Shown piece by piece: positions 6,533 through 38,061 of a stretch of DNA of 64,000 nt (within the stretch, counting starts at the first letter, position 1; every line of letters begins with the position of its first letter). Both the position numbers and the translations under genes were made by a program. The DNA is from Bacteroidota bacterium. Lineage in GTDB: Bacteria; Bacteroidota; Bacteroidia; 2-12-FULL-35-15. Location: contig JAZKBF010000043.1 in the NCBI GenBank assembly GCA_040388745.1, positions 84,405-148,404 on the forward strand, read 5' to 3'. A model generated the notes under the pieces. The model searched no databases. It saw only the letters and a list, made by a program, of their open reading frames with translations, and was not told the origin of the DNA.

Positions 6533-6596
6533 CGAACTTGGACTTTATCATAGGGCTTCAATATTTTCTGAAAAATGAAAAGCCTCTTCAAGTAAC

Positions 6597-18750: not shown

Positions 18751-19467
18751 ATGAAAAGAATAGCGGCCATAGTTCCAGCATACAATGAAGAAGAGGCAAT
18801 AGCATTTGTTGTGAATGATATTAATACTTTGGCGGAATCTCAACAATTATTGATAGATGTAATTGTGGTAAATGATTGTTCTAAAGATTCCACAGCAGAG
18901 GTAATTTCCAAACTTAACTGTATTGCTCTAAACCTGCCTATTAATTTAGGAATAGGCGGTGCAGTACAAACTGGTTTCAAATACGCTTTAAAAAATGGTT
19001 ACGACTATGCTATACAGATTGATGGAGATGGACAACATCCTGCATCCGAAATTCCAAAGATTGTAAATGCAGCTATTAACGATAATTTCGATGTTGTTAT
19101 TGGTTCCCGGTTTATTTCAAATGAAGGTTTTCAGTCATCTGCTGTTCGAAGGATGGGAATTAATTATTTTAAATGGCTGAATCGCCTGTTGGTGGGTACA
19201 GTTGTAAATGATAGCACTTCAGGTTTTCGTTTAATTAATAGAAAGGTTTTGGAAATAGTGGCAGAGTATTATCCTGATGAATATCCAGAACCGGAAGCGA
19301 TCATTATGTATTCGCTTAATAATTTTAAAATTGGCGAAGTCCCTGTAACAATGAAAGAGAGGCAAGGAGGGGTTTCATCAATTGGTACCATTGCATCGGT
19401 TTATTATATGTTTAAAGTTACACTGGCAATAATTTTTACGTTTACACGAATGACATTCAGGAAATAA
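18751..19467 (+). CDS. GT2 glycosyltransferase, DPM1/GtrB-like polyprenyl-phosphate sugar synthase
   Basis: 238 aa; AAIVPAYNEEEAI, VVNDCSKDST, DGDGQH DXD region; family assignment from these motifs. Confidence 0.8.
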   Translation: MKRIAAIVPAYNEEEAIAFVVNDINTLAESQQLLIDVIVVNDCSKDSTAEVISKLNCIALNLPINLGIGGAVQTGFKYALKNGYDYAIQIDGDGQHPASEIPKIVNAAINDNFDVVIGSRFISNEGFQSSAVRRMGINYFKWLNRLLVGTVVNDSTSGFRLINRKVLEIVAEYYPDEYPEPEAIIMYSLNNFKIGEVPVTMKERQGGVSSIGTIASVYYMFKVTLAIIFTFTRMTFRK

Positions 19468-19522: not shown

Positions 19523-19870
19523 ATGGCAAAAATCCAGATCGTAGCAATAGCAGTTAGTTTACTGTTTTTATTTTATATTGTTCGTTTGATCATTAAAGGG
19601 AAATTACGCGAAGAATATTCAATAGTTTGGATCGTGTGTACAATTGTATTGATCCTGTTTTCATTTTGGAGAAACGGGTTGGAAGTTCTTGCGAATACAT
19701 TAGGTGTGTACGAAGCTCCAAACCTAGTGTTTACAGGTGCTATCTTTGCCATTTTAATTTATCTTTTGCATTTAAGTATCGTGGTTTCAAAATTACATTC
19801 GCAAAATAAGCAGTTGGCACAAGAGATCGCATTGCTAAAAAACGAGTTTGTTAAAAACAAAGCCAATTAA
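19523..19870 (+). CDS. DUF2304 small membrane protein (typical partner of GtrB/DPM1-like GT2; putative lipid-linked sugar translocation accessory)
   Basis: 115 aa, 3-4 TM, immediately downstream of the GT2; this pairing recurs in many bacteria. Confidence 0.55.
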   Translation: MAKIQIVAIAVSLLFLFYIVRLIIKGKLREEYSIVWIVCTIVLILFSFWRNGLEVLANTLGVYEAPNLVFTGAIFAILIYLLHLSIVVSKLHSQNKQLAQEIALLKNEFVKNKAN

Positions 19871-20026: not shown

Positions 20027-21130
20027 ATGAAAAGACTTGCAGTTATAAATGGGTTGAGAGGTTATGCTATTTTGGGAGTAATATACTTTCATTTGATTGG
20101 CGTTTTTTTTAATCAACCGGGTTGGTATACCGTTTTTATTGGTAATCTACCGATATTCCCTTTAACCTATTTAGGGCATGGCTGGTTGGGAGTTGATCTG
20201 TTTTTTATCCTCTCGGGGTTTGTACTCTATCTGCCTTATGCAAATGGCAGCCGTGAATTAAAAACGGGCGCCAGTGTCTGGACCTTTTATAAACACCGGG
20301 CTTCCCGGTTATTGCCTTTGTACTATATTTCGTTAGTAATTTCTATTTTCTTTATCGTTCATGCAAGTAACATTCATGAGTGGAGTTTTTGGAAAGACAT
20401 GATATTGATGTTTACTATAACCTTCAATTTTACTAAGGCGACCTTTATACCGTCCTATAATTATGTGTTATGGTCTTTAGGTATAGAGGTGTTGTTCTCT
20501 GTAATTTTCCCTTTATTGATCTGGTTGATCGTTAAAAAAGGGATAACAAAGTTTTGTTTGGTGGTATTTTATATGAGTTTTATTGTAAGGGTTGTCTCTT
20601 GTTTTTATCCGAATTATTATCTGGCACCTCACCTGAATATGATCAAGGACAGTTTGTTTGGTAGGTTAGATGATTTTGCAACAGGAATGCTGCTTTGCCA
20701 TTGGTTTGTAACAGGCTGGAAACAAAAATGGTTTGAACAATACAGCCTCGTTTTATTTTTCCTTTCACTTTTTGTGATCACCTTGGGATGCTATTTTTCA
20801 GACTATGTTTTTTTACATTACATCTCTTCTTATTTCGAACCCTTGATAAATACGTTCTTTCAGCTGGGCTTTGGATTGTTAACGTTATCGCTTTTGCACA
20901 TGAAAACAAATCCAATACAATTTTTATTTGCAAATAAATCGTTACAACTATGCGGAATGATGTGTTATAGTTTATATCTATGGCATGGAAATATGCGTAT
21001 GGTGTTTATTGCAGATTATACTCCACTGCGAATTATCACTTATTCGATGTTTTTATTTTTGCTTTCCTTTTTAACCTATAGGTATATTGAATTCGGAAAT
21101 AAAAAAATGGAAGATATACTTCCACAATAA
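20027..21130 (+). CDS. acyltransferase family 3 (membrane O-acyltransferase)
   Basis: 367 aa, ~10 TM, N-terminal NGLRGYAILGVIYFHL signature of Acyl_transf_3. Confidence 0.75.
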   Translation: MKRLAVINGLRGYAILGVIYFHLIGVFFNQPGWYTVFIGNLPIFPLTYLGHGWLGVDLFFILSGFVLYLPYANGSRELKTGASVWTFYKHRASRLLPLYYISLVISIFFIVHASNIHEWSFWKDMILMFTITFNFTKATFIPSYNYVLWSLGIEVLFSVIFPLLIWLIVKKGITKFCLVVFYMSFIVRVVSCFYPNYYLAPHLNMIKDSLFGRLDDFATGMLLCHWFVTGWKQKWFEQYSLVLFFLSLFVITLGCYFSDYVFLHYISSYFEPLINTFFQLGFGLLTLSLLHMKTNPIQFLFANKSLQLCGMMCYSLYLWHGNMRMVFIADYTPLRIITYSMFLFLLSFLTYRYIEFGNKKMEDILPQ

Positions 21131-21148: not shown

Positions 21149-21832
21149 TTAAACCAACCCTCCGTTCAAGTCAATGCAGGAGCCTGTTAGGTAGGGCGTT
21201 TGGCGAATGTATTGTATTGTATTAAAAATATTTTCAGGATCGCCAAATTCATTGTAAGCAATTTTTGATTTTATTTTTTCTTGTATTTCAAGGGGTACAG
21301 AATTTATCATTCCAACTTCAAAATAACCTAAATTAATATTATTTATAGTAATACCTTTTTGTGCATTTTCTAAGGCAATACTTTTTATCATTCCGTTTAA
21401 TCCTGCTTTGGATGCTGCGTAAGCGCTGGTCCCCATCACTCCAATTTGTCCTACTATTGAAGATAAATTAATGATGCGTCCAAAGTTTTGTTCACGCATT
21501 ACCTGTAATGTTGCACGTATCAGATGATACGTTCCATTCAGATTTACATTAATTACCTGGGTCCAATCGTTAACATTTGATTTATGAGTGAATGAGTTTT
21601 GAGTAATGCCGGCACAGTTAATTAGTGTGGTGTTTTTTAATTCCGGTTCAACGCTTTTAATAAATTTTTCAACTTGTATGTAGTCGGTGATATCAAGTTG
21701 ATAGGTGTTTTCAAAAATTTCTCCTTCAGGTTTGTTTTCGTGATAAGTGCCAATAATTTTTTCTCCAGCTTGGGTAAACTTATTGAATAAAAAATCCCCT
21801 ATTCCGCCTGTAATGCCCGTAATGATTATCAT
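21149..21832 (-). CDS. short-chain dehydrogenase/reductase (SDR)
   Basis: 227 aa; TGITGGIGDFL glycine-rich loop; NAG; YAASKAG catalytic motif. Confidence 0.75.
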   Translation of the reverse strand: MIIITGITGGIGDFLFNKFTQAGEKIIGTYHENKPEGEIFENTYQLDITDYIQVEKFIKSVEPELKNTTLINCAGITQNSFTHKSNVNDWTQVINVNLNGTYHLIRATLQVMREQNFGRIINLSSIVGQIGVMGTSAYAASKAGLNGMIKSIALENAQKGITINNINLGYFEVGMINSVPLEIQEKIKSKIAYNEFGDPENIFNTIQYIRQTPYLTGSCIDLNGGLV

Positions 21833-21856: not shown

Positions 21857-24226
21857 TTATTTCTTTGATTTTGCTTTTTCGTCTTTTGCCCAATTCAAAT
21901 TGCCTTTTGCTAATCGGTGTGTAGGATCAATTTGTAAGGCTTTGGTACAAGCCTCAATGGCTTTATCCCATTGTTTTAACATGTTATAAGCCGCGCCCAT
22001 ATTGCTGTAAGCGCTTGCATATTCAGGTTGAAATTCTAATGCTTTTTTACAAGCTTCAATACTTTTTTCATATTGGCCTTGTTGATAATAGGCTAAACTT
22101 AGATCGATCTGGCTACCGGCAGATGGTGATTCATTAGCAGCGGTTTCAACTTTTGAGGTTTTATCGCGCTGACTTAAAGCATCAGCGAGGTTGTTTTTTG
22201 CTAACTGAAAATCAGGTTTGATCTCTATTGCTTTTTGACAGGCAGCAATACCTTTATCGTATTGTTTCATTAAGGTATATGCGGAGCCCATATTGTTATA
22301 AGCATCGGCATAATCAGGTTTTAATTTTACTGCTTCTAAACCGGCATTAACGCATTGTTCGTATTTACCTGCCTGATAATACATTAAACTTAAATTAAAA
22401 TATTTTTCTGCCGAAGGGTCTTTCTTTACTTCTTCTTCAGTCATTTCAATTTTCCCTTTTTGGTTTTTGCTTGCTTCCAAATATTGCAATGCTTCCGGGT
22501 TGTTAGGTATTATTTGTAAAGTACCCTCAGCTATATCTTTAAGTTTAGTCCAATTACCGGTATCGTTATATGCTTTCATCAATATACTGCGAGCGCCAAT
22601 ACTAGCAGGGGAAAGCTCGATACATTTTTCTAACATAGGTATCGCTTCGGTATACCGTAATTGACCACATAAAAAATTGCCATAAAAAAACCAGGTATCC
22701 GGAGTATTTCCTCCATATTGAGTTGCACTTTTAAAATAATTTTCTGCACTTACTTTATCACCTGTAGCGTTTTTCAAAACGCCCATGTTTATGTGTAAAG
22801 AATAGTAATAGGGCCACATAGCTATGGCTTTGGTAAAACATTTTTCAGCTTCCACGTAATCACCTTTTCCCATTCTGCTAAGTCCGTAATTCATTAATCC
22901 ACGGGCATTTTTTGGGCTTTTAATAGTTACATCATACCATAAACTCTCTTCAGTTTTCCATACTTTATTACGTTCGTAAGTTCCAAAGGCGTAACCTGAA
23001 AGTACCACTATTACAATAAAAACAGCCATTATATCATAGCTAAAAGGTAGTTGTTCCAGACGTTTTTTATATTTCATTAACAATAAACCAATGGCCCAGC
23101 ATACACTTATTACAAGCCCGACATAAGGAAAAAAGATACGGTGGTCATTTAATACCTCAGCAAAAGGAATTACACTTGAAGAAGGGACCAATGCTAAGAA
23201 AAACCAAAGGATACCATAACTTATAGGGCGAAGACGTTCATCTTTAGAGAAAAGGAATGAAATATAAATCATTAAAAAAATAAATGCACAACCAATAAAA
23301 AATCGAATGTTCCAAATGTTTTGCAGCGGTTCCCAATCGCTATCTGCACTTAAGCCGAAGGGAAAAAAGAAAGTAGTAAAATAATGAGCAATTACAAATG
23401 GTTGAGTAATTAAGTAGTTGATAGTGGATGAACCGCCAGATTCCCAAGTTTTAGGGGTTAAGTGGTCAATAAATAAATATAATGCGGCACAAAAAATAAA
23501 TGAAGGGATCGTTTTTTTAATTACACTAATTAGTTGTTTTGACTGCTTTTTATTAAAGATATCATACAAACTCATTTTTTGCTCAAACAAAAGGATGTAA
23601 AAGAATAATAAGGGTGCAAACATAACCGTGGTTGGTTTTGCCAGACCACCAATACCGATCGGAATCAGGTAGAGATGAGTTCTTTTACAATAGGGCGAAA
23701 ACATATACAGAACAAAGCCAAGCACCACAAAAAACGTGGATTGCAAATCGGACCGGGCGATAACGTAATTGATCGTTTCGGCATTGGCAGGGTGCAAAAG
23801 GTACCATGCAACGGCAATTGCAGCAATATAAAAATTCCAGTTGTTTTTATAGGAGGTATTAAAGAACTTGAAAATAAAAAAGAACATTAAAATACCCTGT
23901 AACAAAAAAAGGATAAATGATGAAAGGTGAAAATAAAACATGTTATACCCTTTCCCTAACCAATAATCGAAAGCGAGTGATGTGCTAACAAAAGGCCGGT
24001 AGGATTGGTTGCTGGGCAGGGAACTAAAAGTTGTTGCGTCTTTGAAAAAACGCGGAATGTTTTTTATATCCTGAATAAATAAATTGTTTTCTACAGCATG
24101 GGAATCATCAAAATGAAAAGAGTTGTTAAAATGATTTGAATAAACAAGTGTTACAACTATTATCAGTAATAGGAAATAAACTAAAGTTTTGCCTTTAGAT
24201 AAATTTTCAAATAAATTTTTAATCAT
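21857..24226 (-). CDS. TMTC-like membrane protein: N-terminal DUF1736/PMT_2-type polytopic (GT-C-like) domain fused to C-terminal TPR repeats
   Basis: 789 aa; ~11 TM in the first ~420 aa with first-loop FHFDDSHAVENN (the acidic DD motif of DUF1736/TMTC); C-terminal ~350 aa of TPR units (A.AY.N.G.AY....Y..A...L.). Confidence 0.65.
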   Translation of the reverse strand: MIKNLFENLSKGKTLVYFLLLIIVVTLVYSNHFNNSFHFDDSHAVENNLFIQDIKNIPRFFKDATTFSSLPSNQSYRPFVSTSLAFDYWLGKGYNMFYFHLSSFILFLLQGILMFFFIFKFFNTSYKNNWNFYIAAIAVAWYLLHPANAETINYVIARSDLQSTFFVVLGFVLYMFSPYCKRTHLYLIPIGIGGLAKPTTVMFAPLLFFYILLFEQKMSLYDIFNKKQSKQLISVIKKTIPSFIFCAALYLFIDHLTPKTWESGGSSTINYLITQPFVIAHYFTTFFFPFGLSADSDWEPLQNIWNIRFFIGCAFIFLMIYISFLFSKDERLRPISYGILWFFLALVPSSSVIPFAEVLNDHRIFFPYVGLVISVCWAIGLLLMKYKKRLEQLPFSYDIMAVFIVIVVLSGYAFGTYERNKVWKTEESLWYDVTIKSPKNARGLMNYGLSRMGKGDYVEAEKCFTKAIAMWPYYYSLHINMGVLKNATGDKVSAENYFKSATQYGGNTPDTWFFYGNFLCGQLRYTEAIPMLEKCIELSPASIGARSILMKAYNDTGNWTKLKDIAEGTLQIIPNNPEALQYLEASKNQKGKIEMTEEEVKKDPSAEKYFNLSLMYYQAGKYEQCVNAGLEAVKLKPDYADAYNNMGSAYTLMKQYDKGIAACQKAIEIKPDFQLAKNNLADALSQRDKTSKVETAANESPSAGSQIDLSLAYYQQGQYEKSIEACKKALEFQPEYASAYSNMGAAYNMLKQWDKAIEACTKALQIDPTHRLAKGNLNWAKDEKAKSKK

Positions 24227-24426
24227 GGTTAAAATTAGCTTTATTCGTAAAAGTAGTAAAAATTCTAATTTGAATTTGGGAATTAAAAACCATAGTTTTT
24301 ATTTTGTAGTGAAAATAATATTTTAATATTTAATTATTTTTATTAAATTTGAACTGCAATTTTATCTAAATCTGTTGATGATCTAGAACCGTATAATTAA
24401 TATTAAAAAACCAAATAGGACAGAGC

Positions 24427-25359
24427 ATGAATACTAATAATGAAGAGAAAAAAGAAAACGATTTAGTTGACTCAAACCAAACCTCCGATATTAATCAAGA
24501 AGGAAAATCCGAAAACACTCCATTTGATTCAGATGACAGTTTAGATATTGGTCAGGAAGAAAAAAACGAAACAACTCCTGCTGATGAAAAACAAAGTAAA
24601 ACGATCAGAACTATTGTAATCGTTGTTTTATTATTGTTACCTATTGCGTATATTTTTTACAAAACTGCCGGTAATTCCAGTTCAACTCCGGAACAAGCGG
24701 CTAATCAGGCTCAAACGATAGATGTTGCCGCTTATGAAAATGCTGCAGCTACCAATCCTACTTTTAGTAACCTACTTAACCTTTCAAATGCTTACATCAA
24801 CTCCGGAGTTGCAGGAAAGGCTATAGAGCCTTTAAAGAAAGCAATTGAATTAAATCCTGAAAGTGCTATTGCATATAGCAATTTGGGATTTGCATATACT
24901 ATTATTCAGCAGTATAAAAAAGGAATAGAATTTGGACAAAAGGCTGTGCAATTGGATAGTACTTTCCAGTTGGCTAAAAACAATTTGAATTGGGCTTTAA
25001 CCGAACAAAACAAATTGCTTCAAGCGATTGCGGAAGTAGAAAAAACACCTGAAGATAAAAGAAATACGGATTTTTATATTATGTACGGATTGCAATATTT
25101 AAAATTACAGGACTACGATAAGAGTATTGCAATCTGGAATAAAATACTTGTAACAGAGCCTAAAAATTCGGCAGCATTAATAAATATTGGTGTGGCTTAT
25201 ATGTCTAAAACCCAATACGATGATGCGGTTAAGAGTTTTCAAAAGGCTATAGATGCCAATGCTAATGATCAACTTGCGAAAAATAATCTTGCTTGGGCGT
25301 TGAGTGAGCAAAATAGAGTATTAGCTGAAAAAAATAAAACAGGAGTTCAACAAAAATAA
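24427..25359 (+). CDS. TPR-repeat protein with acidic N-terminus and single TM anchor
   Basis: 310 aa; low-complexity acidic N-terminus, TM (IVIVVLLLLPIAYIFY), then ~6 TPR units; repeats end with LAKNNLNWAL / LAKNNLAWAL, closely resembling LAKNNLADAL / LAKGNLNWA in the upstream TMTC-like protein. Confidence 0.7.
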   Translation: MNTNNEEKKENDLVDSNQTSDINQEGKSENTPFDSDDSLDIGQEEKNETTPADEKQSKTIRTIVIVVLLLLPIAYIFYKTAGNSSSTPEQAANQAQTIDVAAYENAAATNPTFSNLLNLSNAYINSGVAGKAIEPLKKAIELNPESAIAYSNLGFAYTIIQQYKKGIEFGQKAVQLDSTFQLAKNNLNWALTEQNKLLQAIAEVEKTPEDKRNTDFYIMYGLQYLKLQDYDKSIAIWNKILVTEPKNSAALINIGVAYMSKTQYDDAVKSFQKAIDANANDQLAKNNLAWALSEQNRVLAEKNKTGVQQK

Positions 25360-25436: not shown

Positions 25437-25479
25437 AGGGGACGTTATGCAAAAAATATTTTTTTGCATAACGTCCCCT
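25437..25479. terminator. perfect 20 bp-stem hairpin (AGGGGACGTTATGCAAAAAA-tat-TTTTTTGCATAACGTCCCCT), bidirectional intrinsic terminator candidate
   Basis: Read directly; the right arm is the exact reverse complement of the left arm; it sits between convergent genes 24427..25359(+) and 25813..27000(-) and has A/T tracts on both sides. Confidence 0.65.
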
Positions 25480-25812: not shown

Positions 25813-27000
25813 CTAATTTAATGATTGCAAATACGCTAAACGACCTTTAATCAGTTGTAATACTTTATTTGTAAAAAAACTAAGGAGTACAATTGTGCCT
25901 GATAAATATAGAATAATCATTGCTATATAACGCGACCAATGCTCGTTGGTAAGGCCTGTAGCAAATCTTTCCCAAATGCTATTAAAAACAAGTAAAGTCC
26001 CTGTTAAATAACAAAGTAGGGCGATGAGTATTGAAGTTGAATGCTCAAAAATATAATAGAGTATTGTTTTATTTTGTTTTGCATTTGGCTGAAGAGTGAA
26101 GCATACAACATTATAAGTAATATGCGAAATGCTAAGTAAAATAATCCCAATTAAACCAAATACTGTTGATACAACAAATCTATAGATCATCCAATCTTCA
26201 AGGAAATGATTTTTTAAGTAAAATAAAAATGGGGAAGCAATAATTAATAATGCAATTGACAAACAGCAAACAGCAATCAGATTGAATATTTTATATGGGA
26301 TATATAAAAAAATGTTTTCAAGTATCACAGATAAAAAGCGTTTCCCATCTTTCCATATTTTAAGTTTAGATTCCCCTTCACGTTCCAAATAAGGCATATC
26401 TTTTTCAAGAATAGTAAGATCTTGACTTAATACAGCTCTTGCGCTCATTGCGGGTGTAAAATGCAGGCCATCAGGTAATGGCATAATTTTATGCAAGGCT
26501 GTTTTGCGAATAACCCTCATACCACTGGCGGTATCTTTTATCCGTTTGTTTGCAACCAAAGAAAGCATTACTGAAAATAGTGTATTACCAATCCTTCTTA
26601 TAAGTGGCATTTCACTTTGTTTATTTAATCGCGAGCCTAAAGCAACATCAGCACCTTGCTCAGTGATCAGGTTGCATAGTTCCGAAAAAAATAAAGGGTC
26701 ACATGTGCCATCGGCATCAAGAAATGCAAGTAAGTCAGCATCCTCCCTGCTTTTCCAGCCTTCTTTTATAGCAGCACCGTATCCGCGGTTTTTTTCAAAA
26801 ATGATAAGATCTATTTTATCAGAGTGACTTTTAGCAATATTTACAGTATTATCGGAAGATCCATCGCTAACTACAACAATGTCAATTGAAGTTACTTTGC
26901 TTTTTTCACAAATAGCAGATTTCGCTTGCTGTGTCCGTAATATTATGCTCTCAATGCTCTTTTCTTCATTCAGAGCGGGAATTACAATTAATAATTTCAT
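25813..27000 (-). CDS. membrane-anchored GT2 glycosyltransferase (DPM1/GtrB-like catalytic domain + C-terminal ~5-TM domain)
   Basis: 395 aa; LIVIPALNEEKSI, VVSDGSSDNT, LDADGTCDP (DXD); C-terminal 170 aa polytopic. Confidence 0.75.
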   Translation of the reverse strand: MKLLIVIPALNEEKSIESIILRTQQAKSAICEKSKVTSIDIVVVSDGSSDNTVNIAKSHSDKIDLIIFEKNRGYGAAIKEGWKSREDADLLAFLDADGTCDPLFFSELCNLITEQGADVALGSRLNKQSEMPLIRRIGNTLFSVMLSLVANKRIKDTASGMRVIRKTALHKIMPLPDGLHFTPAMSARAVLSQDLTILEKDMPYLEREGESKLKIWKDGKRFLSVILENIFLYIPYKIFNLIAVCCLSIALLIIASPFLFYLKNHFLEDWMIYRFVVSTVFGLIGIILLSISHITYNVVCFTLQPNAKQNKTILYYIFEHSTSILIALLCYLTGTLLVFNSIWERFATGLTNEHWSRYIAMIILYLSGTIVLLSFFTNKVLQLIKGRLAYLQSLN

Positions 27001-27171
27001 TTATATTAAATATTACCTTCTATTTCGTTAAGTTTTTTGTGAAGCATAAGCCTGTTTTTTCAATGTTGTTCTTCTCCTTCTCAGGAATTAATATAAACTT
27101 GCTTTAATACCATGCAATTGTAGTGTTTTATTTTTAAGGGGCAATAAATTTTCATTAAAACCTCTCCTACA

Positions 27172-28596
27172 TTAAGTTCGTTTTTTTTTTAATGCCAGAA
27201 AATATATAAATATAAAAGAAGGAAATAGTTGAAAAAATAACCTGTGAAGGGAAGAGGAAAGGTAATAATTTAAATCTAAATGTGAGATTATAAAAATAAA
27301 GAAAAACCCTATTAACATTAATAAGAGCAGAATAAAATTAGATACAAAGCTTGGATTATTTTTGAGACTTACGCCTTTATATAAAATTCCAAAAAGAAAT
27401 AACCACCAAGGATTTAGTGCCCATTTTCCAAATGCGCTAAATTGATCAAGATACCATCTGCTTGCTATTACATACCTCGAAGAATCTGTAAGCTTTGCAA
27501 ATGCATGTGTTCCTTGTGCATCTGCCATTATATCAGATGGTGGAGCTATTTTTATTTTATAATATGCCAAGAGAATTAATATGGGAAGCATACCTGCAAG
27601 CAGGTATAACATTTCAACAAGTAGCACGCGGTAATTTTTTTTAAAAAACAATAATACTAATTGCGAAGTAAATAAACACATAATAAAAAACAATCCTTCA
27701 TTTTTACTCCAAGCGGCTAATCCTGCTGCAATGCCCGCCATTATAAGAAAATGGGGTTTTGTCGAAGTTTCGTTACGGGCATAAGTCAATAATACTATTG
27801 TTGCTAAATAAAAATAGCCAATTGTATTATCGGCATATTGGGAATCACCCATTGTCATATAAAAAGGAGTACAAAGCAATATTAAACCAGCGATAAGCCC
27901 ATTTGTTTTATTAGAAAAAAAGCTAACAGACGAAGCCAAAAGGCCAATGGTGCAAAAAGTAATTATGAAGCAAAAAATTATCGGAACCCACACTGTTTCA
28001 TTTTGGATCAGTATCCAGCAGCGGGCAATAAAGCCTTTCTGTAACAAAGGGTAATCTAAATGGAGGTCATACAGATCATCCGGGATCATTTTGTGAAATG
28101 AATTTGCCCAGCCTTGAGGGTATCGGCTAATGAATTTAGCGCTTAAATTCCAATTCGCCCAGGCATCCCATAAGCCATGAGGAGTTTCGATGCTATCGAA
28201 TAGGAAAATTCCAGCATCCATCATCCAGGCGTAAATATAGATCCCTGTAATTAAAAGTAAAATAGGATTTTGAAGTAATCTATTCAAATAGCTGATTTTA
28301 TGAGGCAGGGCAGGTTTGCTTGTGTTAAACCATTCGAATTGATAAATTGTTTTCGGATAAATTTTAAATTTGAATATTAGAAAAGCCAACAATCCAATTT
28401 CAATCAAAAAGGTCAGGAAAGTTGTAAATCCAAGTAAATTAAAAAAAATGAAAATAACAGAGGAAATACCTATTCCTATTGGGAAAGAAAGATTGATAAG
28501 AAGCCTGAATTCAATCGTTTTGGTTTCTTTAAAAATTAGAAGGCAAGACACAAAGCCGAGCAAAAGAGGTATAAACATTGAAAAAAACAACATCAT
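27172..28596 (-). CDS. large polytopic membrane protein, paralog A of 41037..42530 (uncharacterised; possible GT-C-type glycosyltransferase or polymerase)
   Basis: 474 aa, ~12 TM; roughly 50-55% identical by eye to the 41037..42530 product, including LINLS.P.GIGISSVIF, HGLWDA..NWNL.AKFIS, PFYMTMGDSQYADNT, AWSKNEGL, HRLFFQLFP.FIFIYFL; no named family recognised by eye. Confidence 0.5.
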   Translation of the reverse strand: MMLFFSMFIPLLLGFVSCLLIFKETKTIEFRLLINLSFPIGIGISSVIFIFFNLLGFTTFLTFLIEIGLLAFLIFKFKIYPKTIYQFEWFNTSKPALPHKISYLNRLLQNPILLLITGIYIYAWMMDAGIFLFDSIETPHGLWDAWANWNLSAKFISRYPQGWANSFHKMIPDDLYDLHLDYPLLQKGFIARCWILIQNETVWVPIIFCFIITFCTIGLLASSVSFFSNKTNGLIAGLILLCTPFYMTMGDSQYADNTIGYFYLATIVLLTYARNETSTKPHFLIMAGIAAGLAAWSKNEGLFFIMCLFTSQLVLLFFKKNYRVLLVEMLYLLAGMLPILILLAYYKIKIAPPSDIMADAQGTHAFAKLTDSSRYVIASRWYLDQFSAFGKWALNPWWLFLFGILYKGVSLKNNPSFVSNFILLLLMLIGFFFIFIISHLDLNYYLSSSLHRLFFQLFPSFIFIYFLALKKKRT

Positions 28597-29045
28597 TTAG
28601 CAAGTACGATTAAACCATTATTAAAATCTTTAACTATGTGCCAACCATTATTTAAATGAAAATTGGTTTCGGGGTTAATATGAACTGACGAATAAAGGTT
28701 GTATAGAATTGTATCGCAAACAATTCCATCAATGGAGATTATATTAGGAGTTAAATAATACCGTGTAAGAGCGAAATGCATTGCACCTGTACCATAATCT
28801 TCATTGGCTTCTCCAAAATACGAGAAATGCGAGGGTTTAATAAATATTTTTTTTACCTCTTCGTACCGGTTTCCGTAAAGTGTAATGTAATCATTACCAT
28901 AATTTTTCTTAATAAACTGTACAGGACTTTCAAACTTTTCTTCATATTTAAGGAACGTAATATACATTTGTCCTACTATGATGGATAGTAAAATTAATAT
29001 TAGAATGTTATTGACAACATTAATGATCTGTATATTCGATTTCAC
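28593..29045 (-). CDS. small single-TM protein, paralog A of 42527..42976; 4-nt ATGA overlap with the downstream large membrane gene
   Basis: 150 aa; N-terminal TM; conserved YGNDYITLYGNRY, and a C-terminal 22-mer FHLNNGWHIVKDFNNGLIVLAK nearly identical to its paralog. Confidence 0.5.
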   Translation of the reverse strand: MKSNIQIINVVNNILILILLSIIVGQMYITFLKYEEKFESPVQFIKKNYGNDYITLYGNRYEEVKKIFIKPSHFSYFGEANEDYGTGAMHFALTRYYLTPNIISIDGIVCDTILYNLYSSVHINPETNFHLNNGWHIVKDFNNGLIVLAK

Positions 29046-29159
29046 TTGTTTTAAACTTTTGTTGTTATTGATAATTAACCATAAATCAGGTGAACTATAT
29101 CTAATTTTTAAGCAATTTGAGCTTTCGATTAAGCAACTTTGTTAATAATGCAATGAACT

Positions 29160-30380
29160 CTATAAGCCGCCAAAAAATCCCGCAGCAGTAAGCAAATTAT
29201 ATGACATTGGGTCAAAGATATTATGTATTACAAAAAAATTACGATAAGACAAAAAATCATTCGTTAGGATCAGTAAAAAAGAGGAAATGATAATTGCCCT
29301 TTTTATTCCAATGGAAAGATTAATTTTTTTATAAAGCTCAATAATCATCAAAGCAGCACTGATTCGGTATATTAGGTCGATAGGTTGGGCATAACGCACA
29401 TTTTTAGGAAGAAAAGAAAACACAACAATAAAATAAACGAAGAAAAGAAACAAAATACGTAGTTGTGGATTCTGATTTTTATGAATTGTAAAATAGTAGC
29501 CGACAAAAGAAAGAAAAAGAAGCGAAGTGAATGGGGACAACATAAAATAATCCACAAAATACTGATACCATGGTCCCGAGTTATACCAAAGTATATAGGT
29601 GTGTGGAACACCGATATTGATCTCTCGCATAATAGTAAAAACAGCCACTGTTTTATTGATATCGCCAATAGCAAAAAGATATATACAAAAAGAGATCAAA
29701 AGCGGGCTTAAAATCAAAGCTATAAGTTGTATAATATTAAAAGGTTTCTTAAAATAGAATTTTTCCAATAATAATATTCCGCCAAAAAAAGGTAAAATAA
29801 AAACAGCACTTTCTTTTACCTGAATGCAAAGACTGAAAAACAATATAAACAGGAGCATTTTGATTAAATCAGGCTTGTTCAAATAATTAATAAATGTGAA
29901 TAAGGAAAGGGTGAAAAATAAATAATATTCGGATTCGGAAAGGGCCCTGCCAGCCAGTCCACTGCTTAAGGGTGAAATACAAATTAATAATCCAGCAAGA
30001 AGTGAAGCCGTTGCTCCCCAATACTTTTTTATAAAAAAGAAGCAAACAATGCAATGGATTATATAAAAAATAAGCGATAAGCAAGATAGCGAAGTGAATG
30101 AATCAGAAAATTTTAAAGCAATCGCATTTAAAAAAGCATGTACAATTCGAATTGGTGGAGGATATAACTGAGATATAGGGTTGCTCAAAAAGGCATCAAC
30201 ATTTAGTTGAAATCCATCTATTCCATGTTCCGCTATATTCTTTGCCTGAAGGTAGTATGTTATTTCATCTCCCTTGTTTTCAGTAGGGAAATATTTTATT
30301 ATTCTCGCAGCAGAAAAAAATAATGCAACAAAGAAAATAATACCGAAATAAAAATGCTTGCTTTTTATTAAAAATTGCAT
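29160..30380 (-). CDS. polytopic membrane protein, PMT_2/ArnT-like GT-C glycosyltransferase candidate
   Basis: 406 aa, ~11 TM; first extracytoplasmic loop ENKGDEITYYLQAKNIAEHG carries the DE acidic motif typical of GT39/GT83-type GT-C enzymes; assignment tentative. Confidence 0.45.
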   Translation of the reverse strand: MQFLIKSKHFYFGIIFFVALFFSAARIIKYFPTENKGDEITYYLQAKNIAEHGIDGFQLNVDAFLSNPISQLYPPPIRIVHAFLNAIALKFSDSFTSLSCLSLIFYIIHCIVCFFFIKKYWGATASLLAGLLICISPLSSGLAGRALSESEYYLFFTLSLFTFINYLNKPDLIKMLLFILFFSLCIQVKESAVFILPFFGGILLLEKFYFKKPFNIIQLIALILSPLLISFCIYLFAIGDINKTVAVFTIMREINIGVPHTYILWYNSGPWYQYFVDYFMLSPFTSLLFLSFVGYYFTIHKNQNPQLRILFLFFVYFIVVFSFLPKNVRYAQPIDLIYRISAALMIIELYKKINLSIGIKRAIIISSFLLILTNDFLSYRNFFVIHNIFDPMSYNLLTAAGFFGGL

Positions 30381-30673
30381 ATCAATAGCAGCCTAAACGA
30401 TTAAAGTAAAAAGACTTTTTATATTCACAAATATAACTTTATTTATCAAACTCAGTTCAAAAAAATGAGCCGGATTGGCATTAAAACGGACAAAGCGCTC
30501 AAATGTTAGGAGGTGTTTTGTTTTGTTTCTTGATCGTATTTAATGTAAAAAAAGAAAAAACAGTACAAAAAAAATTCATACATTTACAATTACAACATCA
30601 AAATATATTGCCAAAAATCATTTCACTCCAAGAACTGCACTTGTAGATGAAATTACGTAGCTAACAACAATTC

Positions 30674-31855
30674 ATGAGTCCTTTAAATCCCTTTTTTTCT
30701 ATAATTATATATGTAATTGCTTTCTTAGCCGGGTATCTAATTAAATTAAACTATAAAGTAGAGTCTTTAAATGGCAGGTATGAATCCATTGACGGAATGC
30801 GAGGTTTTTTAGCTTTAGGTGTTTTTATTCACCATGCATGCATATGGCACCAATATATACAAACCGGCACTTGGGAAGCTCCAAAATCAAACCTCTATAC
30901 TCAGTTCGGACAAACTAGCGTTGCTTTGTTTTTTATGATCACTAGTTTTTTATTCATTTCGAAACTCCTTAATTCCAATGAAAAAGGGTTTAGTTGGCGA
31001 TTCTTTTTTCTTTCAAGAATATTCCGATTAGTGCCGATGTACTATTTTTCACTATGCCTGATTATTATTTCAATACTATTTATGAGTCATTGGCAGTTAA
31101 ATGTAGGATTATCAGAGCTTCTTAAATCTATATTTAATTGGTGCTTTTTTACTATTTACGAAACTCCACATATTAATAATTCAGGATTTACTTCTTATAT
31201 AAATGCGGGTGTAGTGCAGACTCTTCCTTATGAGTGGCTGTTTTATTTAAGTTTACCCTTAATTTCGATATTTATATTAAAGGTGAAACCTAAAATAGGA
31301 TACATTATTTTGACTGTAGTTTTCATAATAATATTTTATAAAGTACATGGCGTTTATGAATATTATATTTATTCTTTTATGGGAGGTGGAATTGCTCCAA
31401 TTTTAATAAAATATAATCGTCTAATAAAGATAAATGACACTATTGCAAGTATAATTGTTTTAATATGTCTTTTTTTAATTGTCCAATTTAGTTCCGCTGT
31501 TAGTGTATTTGGTATACTTTTACTTACTGTGATTTTCACACAAATAGCACTAGGAGCTTCATTATTTGGGTTATTAAAAAATTCTACATTAAAGTTTTTA
31601 GGAACGATATCTTATAGTACCTATTTGTTACACGGTATACTGCTTTTTACAGTATATTATTTTGGCTTTGGCTTTGAAAAGATTAAACTTTTAACGCCTC
31701 TTGAGTATTGTTTGGTTGTATTTTCGTTAACTCCCGCACTTTTACTAATTAGCTTTTTAGGATTTAAATACGTTGAGAAACCTAATATAGATAGAGCAAA
31801 GATAATTATACAAAAATTAACCAAATCACCCAAAACTCAACCATCTTTAAAATAA
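30674..31855 (+). CDS. acyltransferase family 3 (membrane O-acyltransferase)
   Basis: 393 aa; ~10 TM; SIDGMRGFLALGVFIHH signature. Confidence 0.75.
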   Translation: MSPLNPFFSIIIYVIAFLAGYLIKLNYKVESLNGRYESIDGMRGFLALGVFIHHACIWHQYIQTGTWEAPKSNLYTQFGQTSVALFFMITSFLFISKLLNSNEKGFSWRFFFLSRIFRLVPMYYFSLCLIIISILFMSHWQLNVGLSELLKSIFNWCFFTIYETPHINNSGFTSYINAGVVQTLPYEWLFYLSLPLISIFILKVKPKIGYIILTVVFIIIFYKVHGVYEYYIYSFMGGGIAPILIKYNRLIKINDTIASIIVLICLFLIVQFSSAVSVFGILLLTVIFTQIALGASLFGLLKNSTLKFLGTISYSTYLLHGILLFTVYYFGFGFEKIKLLTPLEYCLVVFSLTPALLLISFLGFKYVEKPNIDRAKIIIQKLTKSPKTQPSLK

Positions 31856-32113
31856 GTGGCAACTTTCGTTATCAGTATTTTTTTATAGATTAAGGATATT
31901 TAGTTGATTTTTCGTAAATAATTTTTCTGCAATTTCCCCTTAACTTTTTAAACATATTTGATTTTTTATAAATAAAAAGTTAATTTCACTTTTTATAAAA
32001 AATGATCAATCCTGAAATCTCGTTAAATTATCTTTCTTGGTAAACTCTGTCAGTTTTTATTGAAGGGGCTTTATATATTTAATATCAGGCATATACAATG
32101 AATTTTTAAAAAT

Positions 32114-32689
32114 TTGGAACGTAAAAAAATGAGCAAGCCTTTTATTCATTCAAATGCAATTGTGGAAACAGATGATATCGGAGACGATACTAGGATATGG
32201 GCTTTTGTTCATATTCTTAAAGGAGCGAAAATTGGCTATGGATGCAATGTATGTGACCATTGCTATATCGAATACGATGTAATTATAGGAAATAATGTAA
32301 CTATAAAATGTGGTATTTATCTTTGGGAAGGTGTGCGTCTGGAAGATGATGTATTTCTTGGACCCAATGTAGTTTTCACCAACAATCCTCGTCCTCGTAG
32401 CAAACAAAGGATTGTTCATTTAAAGACCTTTGTCAAACAAGGCGCTTCTATTGGTGCAAATTCAACAATCATGGGAGGTATAACTATTGGGAAATATGCA
32501 ATGACAGGAATAGCATCCGTAGTTACTCGCGATGTTCCTGATTACGCCTTGGTATATGGTAATCCTGCCAAATTTAAAAGTTGGATTGATGAACAAGGAC
32601 AAGACCTGGTGATGCATGAAGATGGTTATTGGACATCACCCGATGGAATAAAATTTGAAGAAACGCAAAATGGTTTAAAAAGAAAATAA
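32114..32689 (+). CDS. left-handed beta-helix (hexapeptide) sugar N-acetyltransferase, WxcM/QdtC/PglD-like
   Basis: 191 aa; multiple hexapeptide repeats (IGYGCNV, IGNNVTI, LGPNVVFTN, IGANSTIMGGITIG). Confidence 0.7.
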   Translation: MERKKMSKPFIHSNAIVETDDIGDDTRIWAFVHILKGAKIGYGCNVCDHCYIEYDVIIGNNVTIKCGIYLWEGVRLEDDVFLGPNVVFTNNPRPRSKQRIVHLKTFVKQGASIGANSTIMGGITIGKYAMTGIASVVTRDVPDYALVYGNPAKFKSWIDEQGQDLVMHEDGYWTSPDGIKFEETQNGLKRK

Positions 32690-32826
32690 TCTAATATTCG
32701 TTTTGTGTATTTTTTAAAAAAGCGGGAATTGCCATCAAAACCTCAAGCTTAATCGCGGACCTATTCATATTATTTAAATACCTGGATTTTTAAATTAATT
32801 AAGTTAATTGAAAATAATATTTTTTT

Positions 32827-33753
32827 ATGCCTAAATTATCTATTATCATTCCATGTTACTTCAATGAATTGAATATCCCTACTACATCACAGGCTTTGTT
32901 ATTGAATGAGAAATTATTCCCCAATGATGTTTCTTTTGAATATGTTATGGTAGATGATGGCAGTAAAGATCGAACATTTGAGGCACTGAGTTTATTCAAA
33001 AATCAATATCCCGAAAAAGTTACTATTGTAAAACTCTCGGGGAATTTCGGTTCCTATAATGCAATTCAGGCCGGCATGGAATATGCTACCGGTGATTGCA
33101 ATATAGTTATAACTGCTGATCTTCAAGATCCCCCTGAATTGATGCCCAAAATGTATGAATATTGGTTGAAAGGATTTAAATTAGTATTAGCAAATAGGGA
33201 GGAGAGAGACGACCCATTTTTAACCAAAATCCTAGCGTCCGGTTATCAAAAGTTAATTAAAAAATTCGCTCTTCCAAATATTCCTGATGGGGGGTTCGAC
33301 TTTTGTTTATTTGACAGACAATTAAGGGAAGATGTTTTGGCAATACAGGAAAAAAACACAAACTCATTATATTTATTGGTGTGGTTAAAATACGAGTATG
33401 CTTGTATTCCTTATAAAAGAAGAGAAAGGGAAATCGGAAAATCACGTTGGACAATGAAGAAAAAAATTCAACTATTTATTGATTCATTCGTTTCATTTTC
33501 TTATGCGCCACTTCGGTTTATTACGATCAGCGGGATTTTGCTTGGTAGTGTATCATTTATATATGCACTGTATGTTCTTTACGCAAAACTCTCGGGTCAC
33601 GTAGATGTTGAAGGATGGACTACCATGATGATGGTTTTTTTACTCGTATCATCATTTCAAATGTTGGCGATCGGAATTATTGGAGAATATCTTTGGCGGA
33701 ATTTTGAGGCTACTCGCAACCGGCCAGCATACGTTATCGATAAAGTATTATAA
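32827..33753 (+). CDS. GT2 polyprenyl-phosphate sugar transferase, ArnC/GtrB-like (two C-terminal TM helices)
   Basis: 308 aa; SIIIPCYFNE, VDDGSKDRT, DLQDPPE region; C-terminal TM pair. Confidence 0.8.
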   Translation: MPKLSIIIPCYFNELNIPTTSQALLLNEKLFPNDVSFEYVMVDDGSKDRTFEALSLFKNQYPEKVTIVKLSGNFGSYNAIQAGMEYATGDCNIVITADLQDPPELMPKMYEYWLKGFKLVLANREERDDPFLTKILASGYQKLIKKFALPNIPDGGFDFCLFDRQLREDVLAIQEKNTNSLYLLVWLKYEYACIPYKRREREIGKSRWTMKKKIQLFIDSFVSFSYAPLRFITISGILLGSVSFIYALYVLYAKLSGHVDVEGWTTMMMVFLLVSSFQMLAIGIIGEYLWRNFEATRNRPAYVIDKVL

Positions 33754-33845
33754 TTTTTAAAAATGATTTAGTTTCAAAAAAAACGGAACATTGTTTTTAC
33801 GAAAATGTCATCAATAAGAAATTTCACCTTGGATTTTAATATTAT

Positions 33846-35396
33846 TTATTTTGAAATTTGGTATTTGCGAATAAGTCGAATTTTTCCATTCACCTCAATC
33901 TTATATAACATTAAAAACAATATTCCTATAAAAAGTAACATTACGCCTCCCTGAATATAATACATTTGTTCGCTCATCCATGGACCGATATTCATCCACA
34001 GTATTTGACTAGGAAAACCCATATTTCCATTTTCATCAATGTTCAAGGTCGAATTAATTTCATAAATATTTAGCAATAGCCATATTTTAGAGGCAACAAA
34101 ACTCAACAATCCAACAACTATGTAAAAATTAGTTGAAAACGAATATTTGTTAATAGCTTTAATTAGAAAAACGATTATCCAAGGAAGAAGGTTAATTAAG
34201 TGCCTACTTTCGGTTGTAATACCGAATAGAAATAAATTCAGTCCAAATGCTGCAACAATACCCCAGCCCAATTGCGACACCGTTTTACAAAAACTGTCCC
34301 AAAATATAATTAATAGACAAACAATAATCCCAAAGTAACTTACGTGTGCAACAAGAGAAATAAGAGGTTTGATCAATGAGGATAAAGTAGGGCCACTCAA
34401 AATTTGAGAGATTGGGTACATTGAATTTGGCTTTGGATGCAAAAAATGCACGATCATTAAAACACTAATAAAAACACCAACAGAAATTAATAGCCTTTTG
34501 TAATTAATTTTTTTCAAAAATAAAGTGAAATCAAGAAGCGATCTATTAAGAAATAATTTTGCGAAAAAAAAGTAAAGTAATACTATTCCTGATATACTAA
34601 AAAACAAAAGATTACGATCTATTTTTGCAACAAAACTCACATCGGTGTCCTTGTTTTGAATAAAAATAAAGAATATCGTAATTCCTAAGATATAGAAAAC
34701 CGAAGCGCTATAAATAAGAATTTTTTGCCATTTCAGAGTTTGCGAAAATGGTAAGAAGCATATAGGAAAAGCAATTAACAATAATCCCTGATAATAGGAC
34801 ATTTGCCAGGAAAATGCAGACAATAACGTAATTATAATTATTCCCTTAATATTGTTTTTAAGGTAAAAATACAACAAAGCAGAGCTAAGCATTAATCCAA
34901 ATGTATCAGTCATTACTGGCAGATAAAACGGGTACTTGATTACTCCGAAATTGATTAAAAATAAGGTAAAGGCGAGTAATTGGTTTCTAAAAGATATTTT
35001 AAATAAAATGAGCATACATTTCAAAAAATAACAAGAAAGAGCAATGCTTACTAAATTTAAAATTTGAAAAGCTATGAAAATGTTTTGTTCCGAAGGTTTT
35101 AATGATAAAAGTTTAAAAAACACACTTATGACGAATGATGGGAATATTCTATGAACGTAATAGATATCGAAAAAAAAACTTTTTGTGAAGTCAGGAATAA
35201 AAGTTGAAAACACAAAACCATCCGTAGTGAGTCCACCGTTATAAGGGTATGTTTCACCAAATAAAATGTAAAACATCCCGTAGTAAAGCATTAATACAGG
35301 GAAGAACCATTTGTTATTAAGGATTTTTTTTAACTTGATCATAGTATGCATAAAAAACCAAAGATAGAAAAAGAAATAGATATAGAAAAAACTCAT
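33846..35396 (-). CDS. large polytopic membrane protein of unknown function (polymerase/GT-C-like candidate); true start probably the internal MIKLKKIL
   Basis: 516 aa, ~13 TM, extremely hydrophobic; no recognisable catalytic motif. Confidence 0.4.
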   Translation of the reverse strand: MSFFYIYFFFYLWFFMHTMIKLKKILNNKWFFPVLMLYYGMFYILFGETYPYNGGLTTDGFVFSTFIPDFTKSFFFDIYYVHRIFPSFVISVFFKLLSLKPSEQNIFIAFQILNLVSIALSCYFLKCMLILFKISFRNQLLAFTLFLINFGVIKYPFYLPVMTDTFGLMLSSALLYFYLKNNIKGIIIITLLSAFSWQMSYYQGLLLIAFPICFLPFSQTLKWQKILIYSASVFYILGITIFFIFIQNKDTDVSFVAKIDRNLLFFSISGIVLLYFFFAKLFLNRSLLDFTLFLKKINYKRLLISVGVFISVLMIVHFLHPKPNSMYPISQILSGPTLSSLIKPLISLVAHVSYFGIIVCLLIIFWDSFCKTVSQLGWGIVAAFGLNLFLFGITTESRHLINLLPWIIVFLIKAINKYSFSTNFYIVVGLLSFVASKIWLLLNIYEINSTLNIDENGNMGFPSQILWMNIGPWMSEQMYYIQGGVMLLFIGILFLMLYKIEVNGKIRLIRKYQISK

Positions 35397-35447
35397 ATAT
35401 TTACTCTTATAACATCAAAATGATACTGAAAAAAAACGGCAAACATT

Positions 35448-36131
35448 ATGGAGGAACTGTTTGATAAATCGGCAGAATACGATGATATGCTGAATAAAGG
35501 CATTTCACTTAGTGGCGAGGATAAATATTTTTTCATTCATGGACGATTTAGTGACCTTGTAAAAAATATTCCGTCTGAAAAAAAAATAAAAAATTTGCTT
35601 GATTTTGGTTGCGGAGTGGGGGATGCAACTCTTTTAATGAAACAGTATTTTCCTGAAGCCGAAATTACCGGTAGCGATACAGCAGCGAAAGCATTAAAAT
35701 ATGCTGGTTATAAAAATAGCGACAATGGAACAATCCGTTATATAGAAATCAAAGATTTTCAATTAAAAAATGAATTTGACCTTTGCTTTGTTAATGGTGT
35801 GTTTCATCACATCCCTATAGAACAAAGATCGGATGCCGCCAAAATGATTTATGATTCATTAAAGCCTGGAGGCTTACTTGCTCTTTTTGAAAATAACCCT
35901 TTAAATCCAGGTACGAAGATGGTGATGAGGCGAATCCCATTTGATAAGGACGCTATTACTTTAGTTCACAACGAAACGCGGAGAATGCTGATCTCCGCAG
36001 GTTTTAAAATAAAAATTAAACCCCGTTTCCTGTTTTATTTTCCTAAAGCCCTTGGGTTTTTGAGGCCATTAGAAAAATTCTTTGTTCATGTGCCATTAGG
36101 AGCTCAATATTATTTTATTGCCGAAAAATAA
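35448..36131 (+). CDS. class I SAM-dependent methyltransferase
   Basis: 227 aa; motif I LLDFGCGVGDAT, motif post-I, LKPGGLLALFE. Confidence 0.7.
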   Translation: MEELFDKSAEYDDMLNKGISLSGEDKYFFIHGRFSDLVKNIPSEKKIKNLLDFGCGVGDATLLMKQYFPEAEITGSDTAAKALKYAGYKNSDNGTIRYIEIKDFQLKNEFDLCFVNGVFHHIPIEQRSDAAKMIYDSLKPGGLLALFENNPLNPGTKMVMRRIPFDKDAITLVHNETRRMLISAGFKIKIKPRFLFYFPKALGFLRPLEKFFVHVPLGAQYYFIAEK

Positions 36132-36317
36132 AGTCAATTGCTCCAATGAGATAGCTTTCAGAGCATCGGGCAGCGAATATTCGGAACCATTATCATCATC
36201 GTTTGGAAGTAACTTAGGATTCAGAAGTAAATGTTGGACATTCCTTCTAATATTTTGTAATTTTAATTTTCGAAAACTTATCCAAGCTAAAATATTATTA
36301 AAAAAGGTAATTTCACA

Positions 36318-37823: not shown

Positions 37824-38061
37824 TCTAAAAAAGCAGTGACTCATAATATAACTTCTGGGCTGAATTTCGATACTCAATCCTAAATCCGTAAAAGCCAAAC
37901 ATGATATTTTTTTGTTATTTTTCTTAATTCACTTGAAGGTTTTTTTGCGAATTCTTAGCTTGTTTATTCAGCGTTTTTTTATAGAAATATTATTCAAAAA
38001 AATGAAATTGAGCTTAATGTAAAAGTTTAAACATGAGGAATAAAATTAACATTTTTGAAAT

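Follow-up and report, generated by a model that had tools for sequence, protein, structure and literature searches.

A bacterial homologue of the TMTC O-mannosyltransferases and a divergently encoded, membrane-anchored TPR protein in an uncultured Bacteroidota

The locus described here lies in a 64,000-nt stretch of DNA from an uncultured Bacteroidota (GenBank assembly GCA_040388745.1, contig JAZKBF010000043.1, positions 84,405–148,404; hereafter "the window", whose own numbering is used throughout), in a region 99% identical to an uncultured Bacteroidota metagenome-assembled genome (MAG; L002 among the related loci, which carry the prefix L). Two genes are at issue. The first (21857–24226, minus strand) encodes a 789-aa protein with a membrane domain and a C-terminal array of tetratricopeptide repeats (TPRs), which the evidence below identifies as a TMTC-like glycosyltransferase of the GT-C fold class (open reading frame [ORF], Pfam TPR, AlphaFold2 [AF2] and hhalign evidence). 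The second (24427–25359, plus strand) encodes a 310-aa protein, predicted to be a type II membrane-anchored periplasmic TPR protein with an acidic cytoplasmic tail, a signal-anchor transmembrane (TM) helix and two blocks of two TPRs plus a capping helix. A preliminary description of the stretch had placed the 310-aa gene downstream of the 789-aa gene; both ORFs exist as described there, but they are divergent, on opposite sides of a 200-bp intergenic region of 20% GC (24227–24426).

The larger protein combines a membrane domain of ~11 TM helices (residues 1–440; 22907–24226, minus strand; AF2, Foldseek and hhalign) with a TPR array over residues 441–789, which is the architecture that the preliminary description had given. 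Homology of this bacterial protein with the eukaryotic TMTC O-mannosyltransferases is well supported by profile comparison and structural modeling. A profile of its family aligned with the N-domains of eight metazoan TMTCs (TMTC1–4 N-domain sequences from the supplement of PMC7801869) at 99.8% probability and an E-value of 1e-28, across 393 columns (hhalign; query 12–415, template 7–432). The controls ArnT, STT3, PglB and Pmt1 all stayed below 1.2% (0.3% for Pmt1), and a PMT_2-type GT-C encoded nearby in the window gave 0.9%. PF08409, the Pfam model of TMTC_DUF1736, was reached by 3 of 15 diverse family members (best E-value 4.9e-6), and PMT_2 by two of them.

Structure prediction points the same way. 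The full-length AF2 model (pLDDT 87) shows nine TPRs and two capping helices past the last TM helix, and in Foldseek it was swamped by TPR proteins, so the membrane domain was predicted alone (pLDDT 88, pTM 0.90). Its best match was Pmt4, followed by AglB, STT3, PglB, AftA/B, Pmt1 and DPY19 (probability 0.9–1.0), and every match at a probability of 1.0 was a GT-C transferase. Together with the motifs below, this upholds the "bacterial TMTC-like" assignment of the preliminary description.

The family is large. Searches with the membrane domain gathered 27,356 clusters (at 50% identity) at E ≤ 1e-3 and 10,837 at E ≤ 1e-10, and close members are Bacteroidota proteins of ~680 aa, mostly named "TPR repeat protein" and in some cases "protein O-mannosyl-transferase" (JGI). 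As a side observation, the membrane domain of this superfamily is covered by no Pfam-A model: PF08409 represents one loop and misses most bacterial members, which would explain why these enzymes are named merely after their TPRs.

Seven motifs (M1–M7) have been defined in TMTCs (PMC7801869), and in the hhalign alignment all seven positions are in register, with residues that are invariant or nearly so over the 40 homologues scored. The catalytic DD motif of periplasmic loop 1 (M1) is FHFDDSH (residues 37–43; 24098–24118, minus strand), which aligns to FVxDD and in which D40, D41 and H43 are invariant. In M2, S72-NQSYRP78 is in register with SHKSYRP (N73, Q74, Y76, R77 and P78 invariant), the His-Lys of TMTCs, proposed to contact phosphate or mannose, being replaced by Asn-Gln. 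M3 (HPxHTE...RxD in loop 2 of TMTCs) reads H145-P-ANA-E150-x7-R158-S-D160, with the same spacing as in TMTC1 (HPIHTEAVAGIVGRAD). The Lys of M4 (KE(T/Q)xxT in loop 3, where Lys is proposed to contact phosphate and Glu metal) is the invariant K197, and the DW of M5 in loop 4 is present and aligned as D297-W298. The last two motifs, M6/M7 (PxxP ... ERxxY before TM10), correspond to P348-SSS ... H362-R363-IF-F366-P367; the Arg is invariant, with Glu changed to His, Tyr to Phe and the spacing shifted by one residue. Both the odd TM count and the K-rich N-terminus are topology signals, and they place the DD loop and the C-terminal TPR array, by prediction, on the periplasmic side.

The array itself (21860–22906, minus strand) comprises nine TPRs and two capping helices, as judged from matches to TPR_1, TPR_2, TPR_8 and related Pfam models (E-values from 1e-38 to 1e-14) and from AF2 helix pairs; TPR models were the only Pfam and NCBIfam matches of the 789-aa protein, whether scanned in full or as the isolated membrane domain. 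Its C-terminal part contains two modules, each of two TPRs and a cap helix: module A (residues 596–684; 22175–22441, minus strand), capped by QLAKNNLADAL, and module B (residues 694–782; 21881–22147, minus strand), capped by RLAKGNLNWAK, which are 49% identical to each other. Across 220 enzyme homologues this two-cap architecture occurs in only four, and by sequence comparison it is a rare, lineage-specific tandem duplication of the enzyme's last module, which accounts for a length of 789 aa instead of ~683 aa.

The 310-aa protein begins with an acidic tail (17 D/E against 6 K/R in residues 1–58), followed by a signal-anchor TM (residues ~59–77; 24601–24657, plus strand) that is preceded by K/R, lacks a lipobox and carries an LLLLPxxYxFYKT motif conserved family-wide. 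An acidic N-terminus, one TM and TPRs had all been noted in the preliminary description, but the repeats number four, with two caps, rather than about six. Its relatives are Bacteroidota proteins of 245–330 aa, 45–91% identical to the window member, and all of them have a signal-anchor TM with K/R on its N-terminal side and no lipobox, from which we read the family as type II proteins whose TPR domain is periplasmic. The acidic low-complexity tail of ~58 residues (24427–24600) is restricted to the window's clade, and more distant members start 7–20 residues before the TM.

This TPR gene is a recurrent neighbor of the enzyme gene. In 16 of the 19 loci with an enzyme at 65% identity or more, a 310-aa-type gene is the upstream divergent neighbor. 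The arrangement is reproduced exactly, with a distant member of the 310-aa family, in L085/86, and in L084 one gene stands between the TPR and TMTC-like genes. A different order is seen in L047 (Hydrotalea sandarakina, 2311–8400), where the TMTC-like and TPR genes share a strand, the TPR gene coming second, and a convergent GT87-like gene comes next; this is the order that the preliminary description had assumed for the window, found in another genus.

Downstream of the TMTC-like gene, and convergent with it, lie two genes that suggest a sugar donor. The first (18751–19467, plus strand) encodes a GT2 protein of the polyprenyl-phosphate-sugar synthase class (GacI / PpgS / DPM1 / ArnC), a putative donor synthase, which matches PpgS, Dol-P-hexose and ArnC models in Pfam and NCBIfam, as well as solved structures of ArnC, Dol-P-Man (dolichyl-phosphate-mannose) synthase and GtrB in a PDB search. 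The second (19523–19870, plus strand) encodes a small membrane protein of the GacJ / Rv3632 type (DUF2304, Pfam E-value 7e-29). Characterized DUF2304 members of this family bind and stimulate a GT2 that makes N-acetylhexosamine (HexNAc)-P-undecaprenol, which is then used outside the membrane by a GT-C. At least 34 of 80 related loci show synteny of this pair with the TMTC-like gene, as do L085/86, across Mucilaginibacter, Pedobacter, Emticicia and Hydrotalea (Sphingobacteriales, Cytophagales and Chitinophagales). This synteny indicates, at the level of sequence, that the locus encodes a periplasmic glycosylation system that uses a lipid-linked monosaccharide. Three MAG contigs in the set (L020, L021 and L022), labeled "Cyanobium sp. 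NIES-981" or "Chitinophaga pinensis", carry loci that most resemble Emticicia-type Bacteroidota ones, and their labels look like binning or naming errors.

Two further genes lie between the donor pair and the enzyme gene. A FabG-like short-chain dehydrogenase/reductase (SDR) gene (21149–21832, minus strand) comes 24 nt after the TMTC-like gene in the same orientation, holds the same position in the close clade (62–96% identity) and is probably co-transcribed with it. The Acyl_transf_3 membrane acyltransferase next to it (20027–21130, plus strand; Pfam) is kept in the closest relatives only. Inside the 3' end of this convergent ORF, 24 nt past the SDR stop, is a terminator-like hairpin with a T-run (21107–21125, minus strand), which plausibly ends the TMTC-like/SDR transcription unit.

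Signals for the 310-aa gene can be proposed on both of its sides. The intergenic region contains one TAnnTTTG match, a Bacteroidota-type -7 motif (TAAATTTG, 24344–24351) located 75 nt upstream of the ATG. A sigma-70 promoter scan found fewer sites than in shuffled sequences; sigma-70 promoter models are ill-suited to Bacteroidota. At the other end, ~77 nt past the stop, stands a perfect hairpin (25437–25479, plus strand) with a 20-bp stem and a 3-nt loop (dG -33.8 kcal/mol, z = -11.3 against shuffles). Relatives have other strong hairpins with T-runs at the equivalent position (L003, L004 and L010), as intrinsic terminators would, and the hairpin is likely the terminator of the 310-aa gene. 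The preliminary description had this perfect stem correctly placed, but had it terminate the whole unit, and it can serve the 310-aa gene only, since the 789-aa gene runs the opposite way. A repeated element was considered and rejected (the hairpin occurs once in the window, and relatives do not conserve its sequence).

Just past this hairpin, which marks its left edge, a block of ~17 kb (25813–42976) is inserted between the TPR gene and a GT87-like gene (42973–44439, minus strand) that encodes a TPR-less GT-C of 488 aa (Pfam GT87 E-value 8.5e-5, below threshold). The ancestral order is RecQ - orf322 - GT2 - DUF2304 / SDR - TMTC-like | TPR / GT87-like - TatC - DUF5686, and in L009, L017 and L085/86 the TPR gene is directly followed by GT87-like - TatC - DUF5686. 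By this comparison of gene order the block is a lineage-specific insertion, absent from related loci. It contains two GT2, two Acyl_transf_3, a hexapeptide acyltransferase, a methyltransferase and PMT_2-like GT-Cs at 27172, 29160, 36318 and 41037, as well as two ORFs of ~520–540 aa with no Pfam match (33846 and 39266). Two paralogous cassettes stand out (27172–29045 and 41037–42976, both minus strand), each pairing a PMT_2-like GT-C (474 or 497 aa) with an ORF of ~150 aa by overlapping stop and start; they are 61–62% identical, the 150-aa protein has no Pfam match, and a further copy of the pair occurs in L018.

Taken as a whole, the locus would be best explained, with moderate confidence on our part, as encoding a TMTC-like periplasmic GT-C that is supplied by the GT2/DUF2304 pair, probably acts on protein and is assisted by the 310-aa protein. 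In such a scheme the GacI/GacJ-type pair would charge undecaprenyl phosphate with one sugar on the cytoplasmic side, a putative flippase would carry the lipid-linked sugar to the periplasmic face, and the TMTC-like enzyme, in the inner membrane, would pass this sugar to an acceptor bound by its own TPR array. The acceptor would most likely be Ser/Thr of periplasmic or envelope proteins, and the 310-aa protein probably an accessory scaffold or acceptor-recruiting subunit of the machinery. A protein is the best inference for the acceptor, by analogy, because the GT-C + TPR enzymes of known substrate (TMTCs, TfpW and TMEM260) glycosylate proteins: TfpW modifies pilin, and the TPR domain of TMEM260 is necessary and sufficient to recruit its acceptor peptide. 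The donor sugar, too, and a physical partnership between the two TPR proteins, are what we infer from gene content and neighborhood.

Several observations weigh against this account. Neither the full 789-aa protein nor its isolated membrane domain matched PF08409, PMT or PMT_2, even at E ≤ 10, and so the PF08409 check proposed in the preliminary description comes out negative for the window protein itself. PDB sequence searches with the single membrane domain and with a 15-sequence profile returned 0 matches, the Foldseek TM-scores are only about 0.42–0.45, and the metal-binding Glu of M4 is Pro198 in the window enzyme, at a position that varies in the family (some relatives have KE). As to the donor, characterized GT2 + DUF2304 pairs make HexNAc-P-polyprenol, which leaves "mannosyl" unsupported; no flippase of the GtrA/Wzx type was recognized among the 28 neighboring proteins scanned with Pfam, several membrane ORFs among them having no Pfam match, and no acceptor was identified. 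The gene also sits among glycan-modifying genes, acyltransferases and other GT-Cs included, an island that would fit a glycan acceptor just as well. Finally, most enzyme-family loci (Mucilaginibacter, Emticicia, Aquimarina) have no 310-aa-type neighbor, and the 310-aa family also associates with a different, GT87-like GT-C.

This last association leads to the alternative that survives best, which we regard as possible if doubtful: the 310-aa protein may be a trans-acting TPR subunit of the GT87-like GT-C (42973–44439), making a "split" version of the TMTC/TfpW architecture. At least ten loci, among them L009, L017, L023, L024, L047, L056, L082/83 and L085/86, have a GT87-like orthologue (50–72% identity) as the immediate convergent neighbor of the TPR gene. 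In L082/L083, from a Chitinophagales MAG (1444–7132), the TPR gene is the last of an operon that encodes decaprenyl-phosphate phosphoribosyltransferase (DPPR-synthase)-, DprE1-, DprE2- and HAD-like proteins, a pathway of the D-arabinofuranosyl (D-Araf)-P-polyprenol type, and is convergent with the GT87-like gene; the 5 kb around it contain no TMTC-like gene. The arrangement recalls TfpW, in which a GT-C and TPRs are joined and D-Araf-P-polyprenol is the donor. In the window, however, the TPR and GT87-like genes are 17.6 kb apart and genes of the decaprenylphosphoryl-arabinose (DPA) pathway are absent, and many loci keep the TMTC-like/TPR pair without a GT87-like gene in the flank examined. The window SDR and the DprE2-like SDR of L083 share only 25% identity.

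Slightly less probable, in our view, is that the same enzyme acts on a glycan or glycolipid (lipopolysaccharide/O-antigen, capsule or another envelope polymer), its TPRs serving to assemble with envelope machinery. The 26-kb island around it would suit such a role, with three GT2, at least five PMT_2/GT87-like GT-Cs, four Acyl_transf_3, a hexapeptide acyltransferase and a methyltransferase, and the characterized GT2 + DUF2304 + GT-C systems (GacI/J/L, PpgS/Rv3632) decorate polysaccharides. Yet most of the island (25.8–43.0 kb) is the lineage-specific insertion described above and not ancestral context, and all GT-C + TPR enzymes of known substrate that we found in the literature act on proteins.

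Unlikely, too, is that the 310-aa protein has nothing to do with glycosylation and is a general TPR scaffold of the periplasm, its adjacency a matter of inherited gene order. TPR proteins are abundant and generic, most of the enzyme family no longer has this neighborhood, and some 310-aa family members are annotated "NlpI" or "superkiller protein 3" in their sources; but adjacency to GT-C or lipid-sugar genes recurs in divergent, same-strand (L047), one-gene-removed (L084) and DPA-type operon (L082/83) arrangements and spans at least two orders, which goes beyond inherited gene order. Because the neighborhood is conserved, some GT-C link for the 310-aa protein is plausible, and the sequences credibly connect it to periplasmic GT-C glycosylation, with either of the two enzymes as its possible partner.

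The preliminary description had also made a suggestion on the two TPR proteins, namely that the 310-aa protein is a duplicate of the enzyme's own TPR module, split off and now perhaps a substrate-recognition adaptor. The four repeat endings on which this was based are present (residues 673–683 and 771–781 of the 789-aa protein; in the 310-aa protein QLAKNNLNWAL at 181–191 and QLAKNNLAWAL at 282–292), and a pairwise alignment gives 33% identity over 209 aa (E-value 4e-32), with the same two-module layout in both proteins. Enzyme module B and small-protein module A are 49% identical, as much as the enzyme's two modules are to each other; enzyme module A and small-protein module A share 41%, and pairs that include small-protein module B 36–40%. 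Identity to the designed consensus TPR protein CTPR3 is nevertheless of the same order (34–46% for any of the modules), and enzyme module B is simply very consensus-like (45.6%).

Extending the comparison to the 220 enzyme homologues and 121 homologues of the small protein, modules are 29–35% identical between the two families, not above the 35–39% that each family shares with CTPR3, as against 40–63% within a family. The 310-aa protein is no less similar to the TPRs of distant enzyme orthologues (27–37%) than to its neighbor. As for the shared "xLAKxNLxxA" ending, phmmer aligns it to the C-terminal solvating helix, the last residues of CTPR proteins, which marks "QLAKNNL" as a generic TPR cap; the NCBIfam model "TPR_END_plus" was dropped as a source of this ending, its near-threshold matches not falling cleanly on the caps. 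The similarity between the TPRs of the two proteins is thus, as far as these alignments go, at the generic level for consensus-like TPRs. The module statistics and the equal similarity to distant orthologues lead us to reject gene conversion, or a duplication of recent date, between the two genes, and, the 310-aa family being moreover large and distinct, an origin of the small protein by splitting off from the enzyme is quite improbable. The preliminary description had named two results that would jointly refute its reading of the two proteins, the lack of a DUF1736 match and a TPR similarity of generic level: we find the second in full and the first in part.

One bolder extension of the favored account, TMTC-like transfer from a GT2/DUF2304-made donor, deserves mention. 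A 2025 review notes that the transferase of the Bacteroidota O-glycan is unidentified, that this glycan has mannose at its reducing end and that a search should be made for homologues of the O-mannosylation system of eukaryotes. It is tempting to speculate that the present enzyme family, with its GacI/GacJ-type undecaprenyl-P-sugar synthase, might be the undiscovered transferase that attaches the reducing-end hexose of the general O-glycan directly to Ser/Thr of periplasmic proteins, with the 310-aa protein as a trans-acting acceptor-recruitment subunit shared with the GT87-like GT-C. We hold this to be very improbable, because the donor synthase encoded with the enzyme looks like those that make HexNAc-lipids.

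Earlier literature mentions prokaryotic TMTC homologues in passing, direct enzymatic proof for TMTCs has been lacking, and we found no characterized bacterial TMTC-like enzyme in the literature searched; nor did an experimental TMTC structure surface in our PDB searches. Human TMTCs are O-mannosyltransferases with links to disease. Bacterial proteins that can be aligned with them from end to end would provide tractable models for TMTC structure and mechanism, and touch on the question of how O-mannosylation arose in eukaryotes. The conserved association with a donor synthase of the GacI/GacJ type makes the pathway directly testable in culturable relatives (Mucilaginibacter, Pedobacter, Emticicia and Hydrotalea), and the enzyme family offers a concrete candidate for those steps of protein glycosylation in Bacteroidota that lack an explanation. 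The recurrence of a stand-alone TPR protein beside GT-C genes further suggests that acceptor recognition can come in trans.

Among known systems, the protein O-mannosyltransferases PMT/POMT (GT39) and ArnT (GT83) share the GT-C fold class with the window enzyme, Pmt4 being its top Foldseek match; unlike them, the enzyme has no PMT or PMT_2 match in Pfam and no MIR domain (no Pfam match in the 789-aa protein), and its family profile scores below 1% against Pmt1 and ArnT in hhalign. The three-component systems (GacI/GacJ/GacK/GacL, PpgS/Rv3632/Rv3779 and GtrA/B/X) resemble the locus in that a GT2 synthase, a DUF2304 activator and a GT-C are encoded together, but their GT-Cs are without TPRs and decorate polysaccharides, and no GtrA/Wzx-type flippase was recognized beside the window locus.

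Two other enzymes, compared here by description, join a GT-C to TPRs. Human TMEM260 has a GT-C core and a TPR domain that recruits the acceptor peptide, and differs in its extra Rossmann-like luminal domain and in a TPR domain of only five helices. TfpW of Pseudomonas aeruginosa, the pilin D-Araf glycosyltransferase, is a bacterial GT-C for which 11 TMs are predicted and which has a large TPR domain in the periplasm, and its essential DDx motif lies in periplasmic loop 1, as does the DD of M1 in the window enzyme; tfpW, however, adjoins pilA and D-Araf-lipid biosynthesis genes, whereas neither pilin nor DPA-pathway genes occur in the window.

TMTC1–4 themselves (CAZy GT105; PF08409) are defined by mannose transfer, with Dol-P-Man as donor, to Ser/Thr in folded protein domains. 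They reside in the endoplasmic reticulum rather than a bacterial inner membrane, and their donor is Dol-P-Man where that of the window enzyme would be an undecaprenyl-P-sugar; to our knowledge, cadherins do not exist in the bacterial host. The window enzyme also departs from them in M4 (Glu to Pro) and M2 (His-Lys to Asn-Gln) and in its lack of a PF08409 match. What it shares with TMTC1–4 is homology over the whole length of the 11-TM GT-C domain and a C-terminal TPR array that is extracytoplasmic in TMTCs and predicted to be so here.

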